Of a stretch of 64,000 bases of DNA, positions 35,286 through 40,763 are shown piece by piece (position 1 is the first letter of the stretch; each line of letters starts with the position of its first letter). The position numbers and the translations under genes are program-made. The notes under the pieces were generated by a model. The model was not told the origin of the DNA. It ran no database searches and was given only the letters and a program-made list of their open reading frames with translations. Source of the stretch: Dehalococcoidia bacterium (GTDB taxonomy: Bacteria > Chloroflexota > Dehalococcoidia > UBA2979); contig OZ219872.1 in assembly GCA_964291495.2 (NCBI GenBank), positions 640,001 through 704,000 of the forward strand, given 5' to 3'.

Positions 35286-36062
35286 CTAGCCCTCGACCAC
35301 CGGGTTGCGCAGCACCCCGACGCCGCCGATCTCGACCGAGACGATGTCGCCGTCGGCAAGCTGATGCGTCTCGCCGGGCGTGCCGGTGAAGATCAGGTCG
35401 CCGCGCTCCAGCGTCATGGCGCTCGAGATGTGGGCGATGCAGCGCCGGATCGAGTGGATCAGGTCGGCCGTCGTCGCCTGCTGGATCACCTCGCCGTTGA
35501 GCCGCACGGCAAGCGGGATCGCCTCCGGATCGAGGCCGGTCGCGATCCAGGGGCCGACGGCGGTGAAGGTGTCGGCGGACTTGGCGCGCCACCACTGCAG
35601 ATCGCCGCGCTGCCAGGGGCGCGCGGAGACGTCGTTGCCGCAGGTGTAGCCGAGGACGTGGTCGTCGACGCGCTCCTCGGGGATGTTGCGCCCGCGGCGG
35701 CCGATCACGGCGACGACCTCGCCCTCCTCGTCGACGCGGCCCGCGCCGGGCGGCAGCACGATTGCCTCGCCGGGGCCGATCACGGAGCTGGGCGTCTTGA
35801 TGAACGGCTCCGGCTGCGCCGGGGCCGGACGGGCGCCCGCCGATTGCGCCGCGCCGGAGTCGAGGTGGCTGCGATAGTTCAGGCCGATCGCCAGCACCTT
35901 CGTCGGTCGCGTCGGCGCGAGCAGCCGCGCCTCCTCGAGCGGCACGACCTCGCCGCTGCGCTCGCGCCGGCCGAAGAGGCCGCCGCGGATCAGGTGCAGC
36001 GCGCCGTCCTCGACGATCGCATGCACCACCTTGCCCCGAACTCGTGCCCGTGCGAGCAGCAC
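35286..36062 (-). CDS. Fumarylacetoacetate hydrolase family protein
   Basis: IGLNY, EGEV, GYTCGNDVSAR, GDLIFTGTP. Confidence 0.93.
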   Translation of the reverse strand: MLLARARVRGKVVHAIVEDGALHLIRGGLFGRRERSGEVVPLEEARLLAPTRPTKVLAIGLNYRSHLDSGAAQSAGARPAPAQPEPFIKTPSSVIGPGEAIVLPPGAGRVDEEGEVVAVIGRRGRNIPEERVDDHVLGYTCGNDVSARPWQRGDLQWWRAKSADTFTAVGPWIATGLDPEAIPLAVRLNGEVIQQATTADLIHSIRRCIAHISSAMTLERGDLIFTGTPGETHQLADGDIVSVEIGGVGVLRNPVVEG

Positions 36063-36226
36063 CGCACCCTCCTCCGGCTGCGCCGCGCGCGGCTCCGCGC
36101 GGCCTCGATCGCGCCGGTGCGCATGCTACGATGCCCGGCGCCGCTCGCGCGTCACCGGCGGCGAGATCGCAGGGGATCGCGCGGCAACTCAAGCCCGTGC
36201 GACCCCCTCCGCACGACGAGGAGCCA

Positions 36227-37432
36227 CTGCTGCTCGGGATCCACCACACGCTCTCGCGCCGCACGGAGCCCTTCAGACCGATCGAGGATCTCCGCGTCCG
36301 CATGTACGTCTGCGGCATCACGCCCTACGACGCCGGGCACCTCGGACACGCGCTCACCTACGTCGTCTTCGATGTCGTGCGGCGCTACCTCGAGTTCCAG
36401 TCCTTCGAGGTCGAGCACATCCAGAACATCACCGACGTCGACGACGACATGGTGCGCGTCTCCGCCGAGCGCGGCCTCTCGATCGCCGAGCTGACAGAGG
36501 AAACGCACACGCAGTTCGTGCGCGACATGGACGCGCTCAACGTGCTGCGCCCGGACGCCTACCCGCGCGTCTCCGGCAGCATCCCCGAGATCGTCGAGCT
36601 GATCTCGCTGCTGCTGGAGCGAGGGCACGCCTACGAGTCCGAAGGCCACGTCTTCTTCGAGGCACGCAGCGCGCCCGCCTTCGGCGCGCTGAGCGGGATG
36701 ACGGCGGACCAGCTGCGCAACGCCCCCCGCACGGACACGATGCCCGAGGAGCCCGAGCACCTGAAGCGCGACCCGCTCGACTTCCTGCTCTGGCAGCCCT
36801 CGGACTACCCCGGCGCCGCCTTCGACGCGCCGTGGGGGCGCGGCCGCCCCGGCTGGCACATCGAGTGCTCGGCGATGGCGCGCGCCAACCTCGGCGATCG
36901 GATCGACATCCACGGCGGCGGGAGCGATCTGGTTTACCCGCACCACGAGTCCGAGATCGTGCAGTCCGAGCACGCGACGGGGGCGGCGCCGTTCGTCGGC
37001 TGCTGGATGCACATCGGCACGCTCACGCTGGACGGCGTGAAGATGTCCAAGTCGCTCGGCAACCTCGTCAAGGTCGGCGAGCTGCTGGATGCGGGGCACG
37101 AGCCCGATGCGATCCGCCTCGCGTTGCTCGGCACGCACTATCGCGAGGAGCACCCCTGGACCGACGCCGTCCTCGAGCGCGCCGAGGAGCAGGCGGCGCT
37201 CCTCCGCCGCGCTGCGGCGAGCCGCGGCGGGCCACCCGACCAGCTGCGCGTCCAACCGCTGCGCAACGAGTTCATGGACGCGATGGACGACGACTTCGAC
37301 ACCCCGCGCGCCATCGACACCCTCCTCGCCATCGCCCGCGACATCGAGTCCGGCGCCCTCCACGGCGCGACGGCCATCCCCGCGCTCGTCGAGCTTGCCG
37401 GAGTGCTGGGGCTGATGCTGGGGCGAGAGTAG
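36227..37432 (+). CDS. MshC-like / short cysteinyl-tRNA synthetase paralogue (start uncertain, possibly CTG)
   Basis: [45 protein letters not shown]; ends after the DDFDTP helix. Confidence 0.85.
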
Positions 37433-37686
37433 CGGGCCCGTTGTCAGAGAGACTGCCGCCAGCCAGAGCATCAGGGGGAGCCGGAAAGAGTAAACTGTAA
37501 ACTATGGGTAGCTGAGTTGGACAAGGCTCAACCCACGCAGCCCGGCCAGTCGAGCGGAGCGGCCGAAGCTGCGGCACAGAGGATCCGCGTCGTGTAGGAT
37601 GCGTCGGCGTTGCAGCGGGATGGGGGCGGAGACTTGCGCGCACTTGTTATTCGGCGCGTCTGGACGCAGCAGGTAGCTAGCCAACA

Positions 37687-38394
37687 ATGCGCTGCGCCGT
37701 AGTCGAGGTCAGGCTGGACCTCGAGTCTGACATCGCCTTACCGACGCCGAGCGACGTTGTGCGGGAGGTTGTTGGCCGTGCCGGAAGTGAAGCCTTGGCT
37801 CCCCCGAACGCGCCGACACTCGTGCCGTCGGCTCAAGTACGAGTTCCGGCCAAGCGGCTCGGCGTCCTCGTCTCTGGCCACTCGTGGAGCGTTCGTAGTG
37901 AGCACCTAACCGATGCCGAATCGATGTTCCGAGATGTGGTGGAGCAGTTTAGGCTCGCCGAGAGCTTCTATGCGGAAGCCGCAGCGCGATCCGTCACCGT
38001 CAGTTCGCATTGGATCGAGCCGCTCGATATGAGATGGAGCGACCTTGTACGGGCCTACGTTCGCGCGTTCTACAGGCCCGAGACGCTTCCTCCCGAGGCG
38101 AGCGATGCAACCGTGGTATTCGATGTTGCCCGGGACAATGGTGAGGATACGTACCAAAGTGGTCCGATGGAGAAGAACCAGCTTGTCGGAGAGTACTTGA
38201 ACTTCTGGGACGCCGATGAACCAGGTCTACCGGAGGTTCTGTTCTTCTTCGCTCACCGAGCGTTGATTCGCACCGATGCCTCGATGGACCCGAGCACAGT
38301 GGAAGAAACCTCTCGGCGAGCGCTGGACCGCGCGATGTCGTTCGCCGAGAATCACTACTCGCAGTTCGCGCAGAGCATTGGAGTGTCAACATGA
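37687..38394 (+). CDS. Hypothetical protein, TIGR04255-like by pattern
   Basis: AVVEVRL start, mixed alpha/beta pattern; stop overlaps next ATG (ATGA). Confidence 0.65.
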   Translation: MRCAVVEVRLDLESDIALPTPSDVVREVVGRAGSEALAPPNAPTLVPSAQVRVPAKRLGVLVSGHSWSVRSEHLTDAESMFRDVVEQFRLAESFYAEAAARSVTVSSHWIEPLDMRWSDLVRAYVRAFYRPETLPPEASDATVVFDVARDNGEDTYQSGPMEKNQLVGEYLNFWDADEPGLPEVLFFFAHRALIRTDASMDPSTVEETSRRALDRAMSFAENHYSQFAQSIGVST

Positions 38395-38885
38395 CGACTG
38401 CGACCCGTACTGCGCCGACAGCGTTCCGTCCGGACTCTGATGAGTCGGAACGGCAGTCCAGATCCTGGGACATGCCCGCTGTGCAAGACAGCGTCGTCGT
38501 TGAGCCAGCACCGCCTCAGGTCACAAGTGTGTGGATGGACTTCATCTCCCGACTGCTCAAGTACGTCGAGTGGGAGCCTGGCTGGGACGGCGGAAACGCC
38601 GAGCACATTGATCATTCGACAGCGCGGACGGCACTTGAGACTGCGGAGAGCATGCAAGCAGTCGCGCCCGTTCCCTTCGTTGCGCCGGCCCCGAGCGGGT
38701 CACTGCTCCTGCAGTGGGATTTCCCGGATGGCACGTCCGTCGAGGTCTATGTGGACAACGAAGCCGACTTCCCTGAGTGGGCCGCCCTCACACGTGCAGG
38801 GGTCGTCTATGAGATTGAGTTGACGGGGCCGGCAGGCCTCCGCGCTCTTCTCCAACAGCGAGTGCCGGTCACAACGGCTGGTTAG
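38391..38885 (+). CDS. Hypothetical protein with WDG motif
   Basis: EPGWDGGNAEHI...PAPSGSLLLQW; coupled to both neighbours. Confidence 0.7.
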   Translation: MTTATRTAPTAFRPDSDESERQSRSWDMPAVQDSVVVEPAPPQVTSVWMDFISRLLKYVEWEPGWDGGNAEHIDHSTARTALETAESMQAVAPVPFVAPAPSGSLLLQWDFPDGTSVEVYVDNEADFPEWAALTRAGVVYEIELTGPAGLRALLQQRVPVTTAG

Positions 38886-39358
38886 TGGCTCCGTCGACCG
38901 ATGAGCCGGAGCCCGTCGCGGCCAACGAGGAGCAGGCGCTCCGGCTGATTCACGAGGATTGGGTCAAGGACGGCCAGCTAACGAGCGTCGCATTCAAGAC
39001 TCGCGGCCCGGATAGCCCAAACTATGTGGCCGTGTCCATGTTCATCAAGGAGCGCCTCCCCGATGGGGATGGCGCTTGCCTGCACACCCGCCAATTCGCT
39101 TCGCACGGTCGCGCCCGACTCCAAGTCCGACACATCCGCGCCGTTACATACATGGCCGGGGACGGTGAACGGCGCCCAGGTTTTGATCTTCTGATGACTG
39201 GAACTGCCGAGCCCCCGTTGGATGCGTTCGGGAAGGCCCACGCTGAGCTGCGAGGCCCAACCCAGCGACCTGCAGCTGCAAAGGCTCTGGCAGTCGCGTT
39301 CAACGAGCATGGTCACATCGAAAAGGCTCCAGAACGGGACGATCGCGCGAGCGACTAA
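38885..39358 (+). CDS. Hypothetical protein, putative ART/RES-like fold
   Basis: LRLIHEDW...TSVAF...VSMF...HAEL; GTG overlaps upstream TAG. Confidence 0.65.
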   Translation: MAPSTDEPEPVAANEEQALRLIHEDWVKDGQLTSVAFKTRGPDSPNYVAVSMFIKERLPDGDGACLHTRQFASHGRARLQVRHIRAVTYMAGDGERRPGFDLLMTGTAEPPLDAFGKAHAELRGPTQRPAAAKALAVAFNEHGHIEKAPERDDRASD

Positions 39359-39434
39359 CGCTGCACGCGTGTTCGCTACGTCGTAGCCTCCGATCCTGTA
39401 GTACGCTCGTTGCCCTGCGGCCTGGGAGGGCGCT

Positions 39435-40763
39435 GTGCTCGAAATCGGCGGCGGACTGTTCGCCGTCCTCTTCCTTGTATTCCTCAACGGCTTCTTCGTC
39501 GCTGCCGAGTTCGCGCTCGTCACCGTGCGGAGCACGCGCGTGCAGCAGCTCCTCGCCGAGGGGACGCCCGGCTCGCGCAATGTCGACGACGGCGTACGCA
39601 ACCTCGACAGCTACATCGCCGCCTGCCAGCTCGGCATCACGCTCGCCAGCCTCGCCCTCGGCTGGATCGGCGAGCCGGCCGTGGCCGGCCTGCTCGAGCC
39701 CGTCGTCGGCCCGATCGGCGGGCACGCCCTCGCCGTGGCGATCGCCTTCACCATTATCACCGCGCTGCACGTGATCGCCGGCGAACTCGCGCCCAAGGGC
39801 GTAGCGCTGCAGTACCCGGAGCGCGTCGCGCTGCTCATCGCCGGTCCGCTGCGCCTCTTCCGCGCCGTCTTCCGCCCCGCCATCTGGCTGCTCAACGAGA
39901 GCGGCTGGGTCATCTCGAGGCTGCTCGGTGTCAGCCGCAGCGTCGAGTCCCGCGCGCACCTCGGCTCCGAGGAGTTGCGCCTCGTGGTGCGCGCGAGCCG
40001 CGACGCCGGCGAGCTGAACGCGCAGCAGGAGTTCATGCTGCAGCGCGTGATCCGCTTCTCCAGCCTCAACGTGGAGAGCGTGATGGCCCCCCGCCCCGAG
40101 GTGATCGCGATCCCCGCCGACATGCCCGTCGCCGAGGCCACTGCCTTCGCCAAGGAGCACCGCCACTCGCGCTACCCCGTCTTCCGCGACGACCTCGACA
40201 ACGTGATCGGCGTGCTGCACGCGCGCGATCTGCTGCTGGTCGAGGGCGACGCCTCGCTGGACTCGCTGGTGCGCGAGCCGCTGATGGTGCCGGCGCAGCT
40301 GAGCGTGCAGGAGCTGCTGCAACTGATGCGCGTGCGCCGCACCCAGTTCGCGATCGCCGTCGACGAGTACGGCGGCACGGACGGCATCGTCACGCTCGAG
40401 AACGTGCTCGAGGAGATCGTCGGCGAGCTGCAGGACGAGTTCGAGGTCCCCGAGGAGATCGCCGTGCGCCGCCCCGGCGGCATCGTGCGCATCGACGCCG
40501 CCGAGAGCGTGGACGCGCTTGGCGAGCTGCTCGGCATCGAGGTGGAGCCCGGCCCCTACAAGACGGTTGCGGGCCTGTTGCTCGAACACCTGCGCGAGAT
40601 CCCGCAGGTCGGCGACACCGTCGACCTCGGCGGCTACCAGTTCGCGATCGCGGAGATGGACGACCTGCGCATCGCCGCCGTCGAGGCGCGCCGGCTGGAC
40701 GCCGACCCCCCGACGGAGGCGGCGGCCGAGAGCCCCGCTCCGACTCGCGAGGCCATCCCCTGA
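39435..40763 (+). CDS. Hemolysin-family CNNM/CBS/CorC protein
   Basis: NGFFVAAEFALV, QLGIT, GELAPK, VDEYGG. Confidence 0.95.
   Translation: MLEIGGGLFAVLFLVFLNGFFVAAEFALVTVRSTRVQQLLAEGTPGSRNVDDGVRNLDSYIAACQLGITLASLALGWIGEPAVAGLLEPVVGPIGGHALAVAIAFTIITALHVIAGELAPKGVALQYPERVALLIAGPLRLFRAVFRPAIWLLNESGWVISRLLGVSRSVESRAHLGSEELRLVVRASRDAGELNAQQEFMLQRVIRFSSLNVESVMAPRPEVIAIPADMPVAEATAFAKEHRHSRYPVFRDDLDNVIGVLHARDLLLVEGDASLDSLVREPLMVPAQLSVQELLQLMRVRRTQFAIAVDEYGGTDGIVTLENVLEEIVGELQDEFEVPEEIAVRRPGGIVRIDAAESVDALGELLGIEVEPGPYKTVAGLLLEHLREIPQVGDTVDLGGYQFAIAEMDDLRIAAVEARRLDADPPTEAAAESPAPTREAIP

Follow-up and report, generated by a model that had tools for sequence, protein, structure and literature searches.

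The window analysed here is a stretch of 64,000 nucleotides from a Dehalococcoidia genome (assembly GCA_964291495.2, contig OZ219872.1, forward-strand positions 640,001 to 704,000), and it carries a foreign cassette of three co-oriented open reading frames (ORF1, ORF2 and ORF3), all on the plus strand. We read this cassette, with moderate confidence, as a horizontally acquired toxin-antitoxin (TA)-type module, most likely serving abortive infection or defence. Toxins with the ADP-ribosyltransferase (ART) fold are increasingly encountered in bacterial immunity (e.g. DarTG and CmdTAC), and the cassette adds to them a small ART-fold family that models well, has a partner domain of its own and is built around a non-canonical Arg-Ser-His core. 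A first-pass annotation, made from the sequence alone, had proposed an uncharacterised three-component toxin or defence module; that first reading proved largely right, and its interpretation is partly supported by the results below.

In the mechanism that we favour, free ORF3 would use NAD+ to inactivate an essential target, by ADP-ribosylation or in another way, and ORF2 would bind and neutralise ORF3 via its 'GWDG' domain. Where the pair stands alone, an ORF2 bearing a ribbon-helix-helix (RHH) domain probably autoregulates; in the window ORF2 has a short conserved tail in place of the RHH domain, and the separate ORF1 upstream may act as a 'head', a regulator or sensor through which effector release is controlled. 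The module as a whole may have an anti-phage function.

The ORF2-ORF3 pair

ORF3 (38885..39358, 157 residues, GTG start) is the putative toxin. Its AlphaFold2 model, built from a 31-sequence alignment, has a predicted local distance difference test score (pLDDT) of 94.7 and a predicted template modelling score (pTM) of 0.87, and indicates the split beta-sheet fold of the ADP-ribosyltransferase type. Foldseek with this model returned nothing from the PDB at E<=1e-3, the best TM-scores being those of KptA, AvrPphF and RhsP2. The VIA structure scan of 48,161 chains, which is independent of Foldseek, returned 73 chains at Z>=2, headed by KptA (Z 6.0, root-mean-square deviation (rmsd) 3.3 Å, 93 residues), AvrPphF ORF2 (Z 5.5) and mouse Tpt1 (Z 5.3), and followed by Tse2, Scabin, TreX, NarE, DarT, the pertussis, diphtheria and heat-labile toxins, SidE-family mono-ADP-ribosyltransferase (mART) domains, Tne2, Tse6 and SPN. 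About 40 of the 50 best of these 73 matches are ART, Tpt1 or NADase toxins, a count made by reading entry titles. A second structure comparison, with 787 Foldseek-ranked chains, gave 14 at Z>=2; the best 10 all belong to the ART superfamily, with the NAD lobes of Tpt1/KptA at the top (Z 6.2-6.6, rmsd 3.1-3.3 Å, 90-94 residues). As the Z-scores are modest, the argument for the ART fold rests on the uniformity of the match list.

Residue conservation was examined across 38 members of the superfamily of ORF3-like (B) proteins. R20 is kept in 36 of them, S51 in 37 and H119 in all 38, and no other polar position is as well conserved; the three agree with the arginine, serine and late histidine picked out in the first-pass annotation. 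R20 lies on the first strand (residues 17-22), S51 on the second (50-54) and H119 opens the strand 119-123; the three candidate active-site residues were assigned to the ART catalytic positions, on strands 1, 2 and 5, by strand order. ORF3 had also been called ART/RES-like: the model and the structure matches bear out the ART half of this description, and the RES half gains no support, the R-E-S model of the RES-domain toxins matching 0/31 ORF3-family members. The family has its own insert (approximately residues 86-112) and an ERLP motif. The ORF3 profile gave chance matches only (E ~1) against PDB sequences, and a Protein Atlas look-up for ORF3 gave unnamed clusters only.

The NAD-binding C-terminal lobe of Tpt1/KptA is the best structural match to ORF3, and to our knowledge Tpt1 has, like ORF3, no conserved catalytic glutamate on the fifth strand. 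However, the two are only 8-12% identical, ORF3 is without the N-terminal RNA-binding lobe and, unlike Tpt1/KptA, it comes with a partner gene of its own in a mobile cassette of sporadic occurrence. ART-toxin TA systems such as DarTG and ParST resemble the cassette in placing a small ART-fold protein next to a cognate neutraliser, and DarT structures match ORF3 at Z 3.1-4.1, but there is no sequence similarity, the pattern of conserved residues differs and the ORF2 domain matches no Pfam or PDB sequence. CmdTAC (PMC11618068) has the same arrangement of three small co-oriented genes, in which an ART-fold effector and its neutralising partner are joined by a third protein, possibly one that couples infection sensing to toxin release. 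It differs in that no sequence relation to it was found (PADLOC matches are to PDC-M32 only), in that the folds among the matches listed for ORF1 are those of TATA-binding protein (TBP), McsB, SerRS and START-type proteins, with no entry of the SecB type, to which the antitoxin-stabilising chaperone of such tripartite systems belongs, and in that the nearest structures to ORF3 are Tpt1/KptA, not a known mRNA ART, with His rather than Glu as the third conserved position.

ORF2 (38391..38885, 164 residues, ATG start) consists, according to the alignment and the locus translations, of a low-complexity N-terminal tail (38391..38525, approximately residues 1-45) and the putatively toxin-neutralising GWDG domain (38526..38885, approximately residues 46-164). 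Thirty homologues are listed, ORF2 itself included, and 23 columns of the GWDG domain are invariant in their alignment; the ORF2 profile gave chance matches only (E ~1) against PDB sequences. The N-terminal end varies in kind. Five of the 30 carry an RHH domain (PF01402, precomputed), the module with which type II antitoxins usually bind DNA, and the copies of this type (L002 and L005) have no ORF1, whereas the tail-type copies (the window and L003) do. The tail has a conserved pattern, MTTAT...F..E...(S/P)W(D/E), that is present in the ORF1-linked copies.

The first-pass annotation had cast ORF2 as the antitoxin, and its relationships and gene context agree: ORF2 behaves like a putative cognate neutraliser of ORF3, being upstream of it in 10/11 loci, bearing the RHH domain in 5/30 homologues and remaining intact where ORF3 is broken or lost. 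The layout is that of a type II TA locus i.e. small adjacent genes, the antitoxin first, and translational coupling through a TAGTG overlap that is also found in L003.

The ORF2 and ORF3 families are both small: for ORF3 the searches returned 10 word-indexed homologues and, out of 1.84 billion cluster representatives, 33 at E<=1e-3. Eleven foreign loci were obtained from the genome, metagenome and phylum-sample searches together; ORF3 lies directly 3' of ORF2 in 10 of them, and no ORF3 without an ORF2-like neighbour was found among the recovered loci. Strong ORF2 and ORF3 matches coincide in four genomes of the 401-genome phylum sample, the source genome included, and the named carriers of the pair are metagenome-assembled genomes (MAGs) of Dehalococcoidia, Tepidiformaceae and Anaerolineaceae. 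ORF1 is upstream of the pair in one of the 11 foreign loci (L003) and in four protein-database cases, in which the ORF1 homologue comes from a contig of the same length as that of an ORF2 homologue, one such pair having consecutive NCBI locus tags; two further loci (L032 and L033) are too short to tell. The conserved triad expected from the first-pass annotation is thus borne out for ORF2 and ORF3 and not for ORF1: the conserved unit is the ORF2-ORF3 pair, and ORF1 is accessory.

Three loci have lost ORF3 or its reading frame. G292 has an in-frame TAG in ORF3 beside an intact ORF2, and L031 has a one-base frameshift in ORF3, again with ORF2 intact; a near-identical intact protein (P0008) exists, and the L031 frameshift could be a sequencing error. 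L006 has a shortened ORF2 copy (153 vs 164 residues) and no ORF3 alongside. Asymmetric loss of this kind is the decay expected when the downstream gene, ORF3, is toxic. The orphan ORF2 copy of L006 sits about 10 kb from a full triad in the same MAG, and a clan AA aspartic protease gene (L006:3027-3398; TIGR03698, E 4.8e-17) lies just upstream of it.

PDC-M32 was the sole family matched in a PADLOC scan of the cassette. ORF2 matched PDC-M32A (E 6.9e-5) at profile positions 245-335 of 375, i.e. in the C-terminal third, and ORF3 matched PDC-M32B (E 1.3e-3) over residues 14-44, the first 31 residues of the model. Family-wide, 29 of the 30 ORF2 relatives matched PDC-M32A and six of 31 ORF3 relatives weakly matched one PDC-M32B model, PDLC04579. 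Two genomes of the phylum sample with weak ORF3-profile matches (G278 and G045) contain genuine PDC-M32 pairs, whose B proteins match full-length at E 1e-43 and whose A C-terminal domains match at E 1e-32 to 1e-34. By hhalign, the ORF3 family aligned with PDC-M32B at 94.6% (E 6.8e-8, 115 columns) and the ORF2 domain with five A-like domains at 96.4% (E 1e-9); the full-length ORF2 alignment against two PDC-M32A proteins was insignificant (1.7%), and a significant score required trimming the alignment to the domain and using the five A-like domains.

The resemblance extends to gene organisation, since both pairs have adjacent genes on one strand in the order A then B, the A protein ending in a GWxDG...P.P.G...W domain and being followed by an R-S-H protein of about 125-160 residues. 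The differences are that the ORF3 of the window has no full-length PDC-M32B match, unlike genuine members, that ORF2 lacks the N-terminal part of about 240 residues found in PDC-M32A (about 375 residues), and that a separate ORF1 precedes the pair in the window. On the evidence of the profile comparisons, the ORF2-ORF3 pair is a divergent relative of PDC-M32, with homology between the GWDG domain and the C-terminal domain of PDC-M32A. The first-pass annotation had called the module uncharacterised; with a distant relative in PADLOC, itself unpublished and uncharacterised, the pair is not wholly unlisted. According to PMC11811056, PDC-x systems are PADLOC candidates that have not been published, and in the full-text literature searched the one mention of PDC-M32 is among the PADLOC results of a prophage paper (PMC12429752). 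The results offer a first structural and functional hypothesis for PDC-M32. That PDC-M32A is a fusion of ORF1 with ORF2 was considered and found no support, as ORF1 has no PADLOC match and the hidden Markov models (HMMs) of TIGR04255 and ORF1 match nothing beside genuine PDC-M32 or stand-alone ORF2-ORF3 pairs; the A-B pair occurs without a head gene in the RHH-type loci and the PDC-M32 pairs.

ORF1 and the TIGR04255 genes

ORF1 (37687..38394, 235 residues, ATG start) has five close homologues only and carries the motif Q-S-G-P-M-x-K-x-Q-L. Its model (pLDDT 82.4, residues 25-46 disordered) is a two-lobed alpha/beta protein with a TBP-like/helix-grip fold: Foldseek gave nine matches at E<=1e-3, all of them TBP, a wide scan gave the McsB kinase domain (Z 7.8), the archaeal SerRS N-terminal domain (Z 6.9) and TBP (Z 6.7), and the C-terminal half has START/ARO-CYC helix-grip matches. 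PADLOC had no match to ORF1. The ORF1 homologue of one 'Chloroflexi bacterium' MAG shares 91% identity with the ORF1 of the window, against 59% for the ORF2 homologue next to it (P0041 vs P0013); these identities suggest that the head gene and the effector pair have recombined or that the pair has evolved much faster.

The first-pass annotation had described ORF1 as TIGR04255-like, and this did not hold up as a statement of family membership. The NCBIfam HMM (cut-off 30 bits) missed ORF1 at E<=1, seven ORF1-family members at E<=10 and four distant members, hhalign against 17 genuine TIGR04255 members gave 1.5%, and the HMM found no candidate anywhere in the source genome. A language-model look-alike cluster of ORF1 is nevertheless auto-named 'putative TIGR04255 family protein' (0.94), the TIGR04255 proteins (in NCBIfam, a 'sporadically distributed' family) are of similar length to ORF1 (about 230-300 residues), and ORF1 holds the same position as genuine TIGR04255 genes do in parallel triads.

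These parallel triads come from the genuine TIGR04255 genes, which are present in 21 of 301 genomes of the class. In five of the 21 loci (L052, L057, L059, L062 and L066) an ORF3-like B protein is encoded two genes downstream; hhalign of the ORF3 family against these five B proteins gave 97.0% (E 1e-10, 117 columns) and brought the R, S and H positions into register. An ORF2-like A protein of the GWDG type is present in four (L052, L057, L066 and L065). Eight other loci have instead a protein of about 190 residues, here called the C family (L046, which is the same as L023, and L050, L051, L053, L054, L056, L063 and L064). Searching the class with an ORF1 profile gave distant ORF1-like genes that each precede a different downstream gene, and in one of these loci (G123, L038) the ORF1-like gene is followed by a 202-residue protein (L038:2047-2655) that is itself a member of the C family (HMM E 5.2e-26; hhalign 99.5%, E 1.3e-22). 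With the A-B pair and the C family as common partners, ORF1-like and TIGR04255 proteins share at least two types of partner cassette, and from this genomic context the two kinds of gene look functionally equivalent. Both are found ahead of the same interchangeable effector cassettes.

A broader reading can be offered tentatively, although we think it rather less probable than not: ORF1-like and TIGR04255 proteins may be two versions, sequence-unrelated or extremely diverged, of one undescribed class of infection- or stress-sensing head that gates swappable effectors, with ORF3/PDC-M32B forming a new Arg-Ser-His ART clade nearest the Tpt1/KptA NAD lobe. The effectors of such a class could, with equal caution, include the GWDG and R-S-H ART-fold pair, the family of about 190 residues with its 'QGD...TQxCD' motif, small membrane proteins and PIN-like nucleases. 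Enzymes of the Arg-Ser-His clade might ADP-ribosylate nucleic-acid phosphates rather than proteins. Full-text literature searches found no paper on the TIGR04255 family, for which a position before swappable effectors provides a role that can be tested.

Several further observations concern the other partners. The undescribed C family recurs immediately downstream of TIGR04255 genes, and its members (about 175-210 residues) have an N-terminal QGD...(T/S)(Q/P)xCD motif and a conserved C-terminus, PPY..hF.QRF..F..R..LP; no match was found for protein 3 of L023 in NCBIfam or PADLOC, nor for the 202-residue protein of L038 in NCBIfam. Proteins 2 and 3 of the G401 cassette were tried as relatives of ORF2 and ORF3 and rejected (hhalign 0.2%), protein 3 belonging to the C family. 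In two same-genus genomes an ORF1-like gene (231-248 residues) is paired with a gene for a hydrophobic protein of 109 residues (L035:1166-2238 in G409 and L036:1258-2279 in G714), between EF-G-like and RecJ-like genes; the 109-residue protein has one clear hydrophobic segment (approximately residues 54-78) and a second, weaker one, and the two genes may form a module of head plus membrane effector. In G704 (L037:216-1853, GC content 0.47) an ORF1-like gene is accompanied by a 129-residue protein and by a 191-residue protein with a weak VapC/PIN match (TIGR00028, E 0.077); here too there are three genes, with another kind of putative toxin.

The insertion site and the competing explanations

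The region around the cassette (4.7 kb) was searched in 20 relatives, 12 of them of the same genus (G401-G412; loci L021-L030). The two flanking genes occur together in 10 of these 12; in G406 they are about 87 kb apart, and G407 has a partial right flank only. Three sites are empty, with 11-12 bp (G402 and G403) or 70 bp (G408) separating the flanks, and the gap is 1.6-2.0 kb in G409, G405, G401, G410, G404 and G412 and 5.3 kb in G411. Relatives of ORF1, ORF2 or ORF3 were not found by tblastn in any of these 10 gaps. The cargo instead consists of other genes. In G409 a TcmP protein (TIGR04474, E 1.8e-38) lies beside a protein like PADLOC PDC-M41B/PDC-M30B (E 4.5e-106/1.2e-101), and proteins with the same N-terminal sequence as this TcmP-type cargo are present in L022, L024, L026 and L027, the family scan having been run on L021 only. 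G404 has a dGTPase (PADLOC dGTPase, E 7.4e-92), in G401 two small genes follow the gene for a genuine TIGR04255 protein (E 1.8e-45), and in G411 TcmP-type cargo is broken up by IS5 and IS630 transposases.

Across the genus, the interval between the cysS/mshC-like and CNNM/CorC genes is a hotspot for cargo, occupied in seven and empty in three relatives, and the cassette is a foreign insert at this variable site. The foreign origin claimed in the first-pass annotation was confirmed in two ways, by the low GC (guanine plus cytosine) content of the cassette (0.56-0.65 across 37500-39600 vs ~0.70-0.80 in the flanks) and by the empty or differently filled site in same-genus genomes. That annotation had also suggested looking for a defence-type location, and the same site in relatives holds the dGTPase, the TcmP/PDC-M41-like pair and the TIGR04255 cassette. 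The hotspot is a natural experiment, with some genomes empty and others carrying four different cargos, and is useful for mining further systems in uncultured Chloroflexota-type genomes.

A number of results weigh against reading the cassette as a defence module with an ART toxin. The Z-scores of ORF3 reach 6.6 at most, and values below 8 can reflect a common arrangement only. E121 is variable i.e. the canonical catalytic glutamate of R-S-E and H-Y-E ARTs is not conserved, and this, together with the placement of the other residues by strand order, means that ORF3 may have the ART fold without being an enzyme, or may act in a different way. The Pfam ART, RES and DarT models match 0/31 ORF3-family members at E<=5. 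No DNA-binding domain was found in the ORF2 of the window by Pfam scan. ORF1 is a minority companion of the pair with no recognisable active site or known family and, apart from the look-alike cluster, its link to TIGR04255 is one of gene context. The relative with a PADLOC entry, PDC-M32, is an unvalidated candidate. Finally, tblastn of ORF2 and ORF3 gave no match in the plasmid and phage collections, no relative was found on viral contigs, and BFVD gave no match at E<=1e-3.

The absence of phage, plasmid and viral copies from the searched collections would also be expected if the cassette were a plain chromosomal type II TA (addiction) pair with no immune role, in which ORF1, a transcription factor or passenger transferred along with the pair, stands in for the absent RHH domain. 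We regard this as possible but fairly unlikely. The RHH-fused ORF2 homologues do resemble classical autoregulated TA operons, ORF1 and RHH are apparently mutually exclusive (L002 and L005 vs the window and L003), and the best Foldseek matches of ORF1 are to a DNA-binding protein, TBP. However, the other cargos of the hotspot are defence-type genes, and ORF1-like and TIGR04255 genes precede several unrelated effectors without ORF2, which fits a sensor or regulator better than a repressor dedicated to a single operon. A TA role is, moreover, compatible with a role in defence.

The structural matches of ORF3 raise a different possibility, which we consider improbable: ORF3 would be no toxin but a Tpt1/KptA-like NAD-dependent enzyme that modifies or repairs nucleic-acid ends, or a regulator that binds NAD or ADP-ribose, with ORF2 as its substrate-recognition or cofactor subunit. 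Tpt1/KptA NAD lobes are the best matches to ORF3 (Z 6.0-6.6), and the catalytic glutamate typical of toxin ARTs is not conserved. Yet the matches span chain residues ~84-180 only, the N-terminal RNA-binding lobe of Tpt1 being missing from ORF3, and occurrence in 4/401 genomes, residence in a hotspot, broken ORF3 genes beside intact ORF2 and RHH-fused partners are typical of TA systems, not of housekeeping repair. It is very improbable that the cassette is what remains of a mobile element, in decay and no longer functional. No mobility genes, terminal repeats or promoter-like site were found and the cassette is present in single copy, but its three frames are intact, and the L003 triad keeps the coupling overlaps and gives ratios of nonsynonymous to synonymous substitution rates (dN/dS) of 0.36 for ORF1, 0.26 for ORF2 and 0.22 for ORF3, dS being near saturation. 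L003 is the only other full triad fetched, with a protein identity of 54-64% (51-64% is also given). All three are real genes under purifying selection. Of these four readings, the defence-type TA module is the one best supported.

Cassette boundaries and neighbouring genes

The cassette extends from about 37437 to 39372 (~1.94 kb), with approximate junctions placed by alignment to the empty sites of G402, G403 and G408, the GC profile and the flank spacing. ORF1 and ORF2 overlap by 4 nt (ATGA) and ORF2 and ORF3 by 1 nt (TAGTG), and the ORF listing agrees exactly with the overlaps and common orientation given in the first-pass annotation. Pfam, NCBIfam and PHROGs gave no family match for ORF1, ORF2 or ORF3, and no integrase or transposase family was found among the ORF matches of the cassette, as had been noted. 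Between the left junction and ORF1 lies a leader (37437..37686, plus strand), to which no ORF is assigned and which presumably holds the promoter or operator; a search of it for a sigma-70-like promoter site found none, and it has no notable inverted repeat. The cassette ends have no terminal inverted or direct repeats of note. One terminator-like hairpin was found, inside the start of the CNNM gene, and this is fewer than shuffled sequence yields.

The genes on either side, both on the plus strand, are host backbone, and the MshC-like and CNNM assignments made for them earlier were upheld. The left flank (36044..37432) is a gene of the CysRS/MshC family (1li5, E 2.9e-94; MshC 8hfm, E 5.8e-75) with 77-94% DNA identity in same-genus genomes, and the right flank (39435..40763) is a gene of the CorC/CNNM family (7m1t, E 2.1e-41) with 80-93% identity. 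A second partial DNA match to the left flank (76-78% identity) is present on another contig (G000:C5:1132108-1132913), and the cysS/mshC-like gene may be one of two CysRS-family paralogues. The end of this gene, GGCGAGAGTAGCG (37425-37440), loosely resembles the end of ORF3, GCGCGAGCGACTAACG (39345-39363), a resemblance that may be a junction-repeat remnant or chance.

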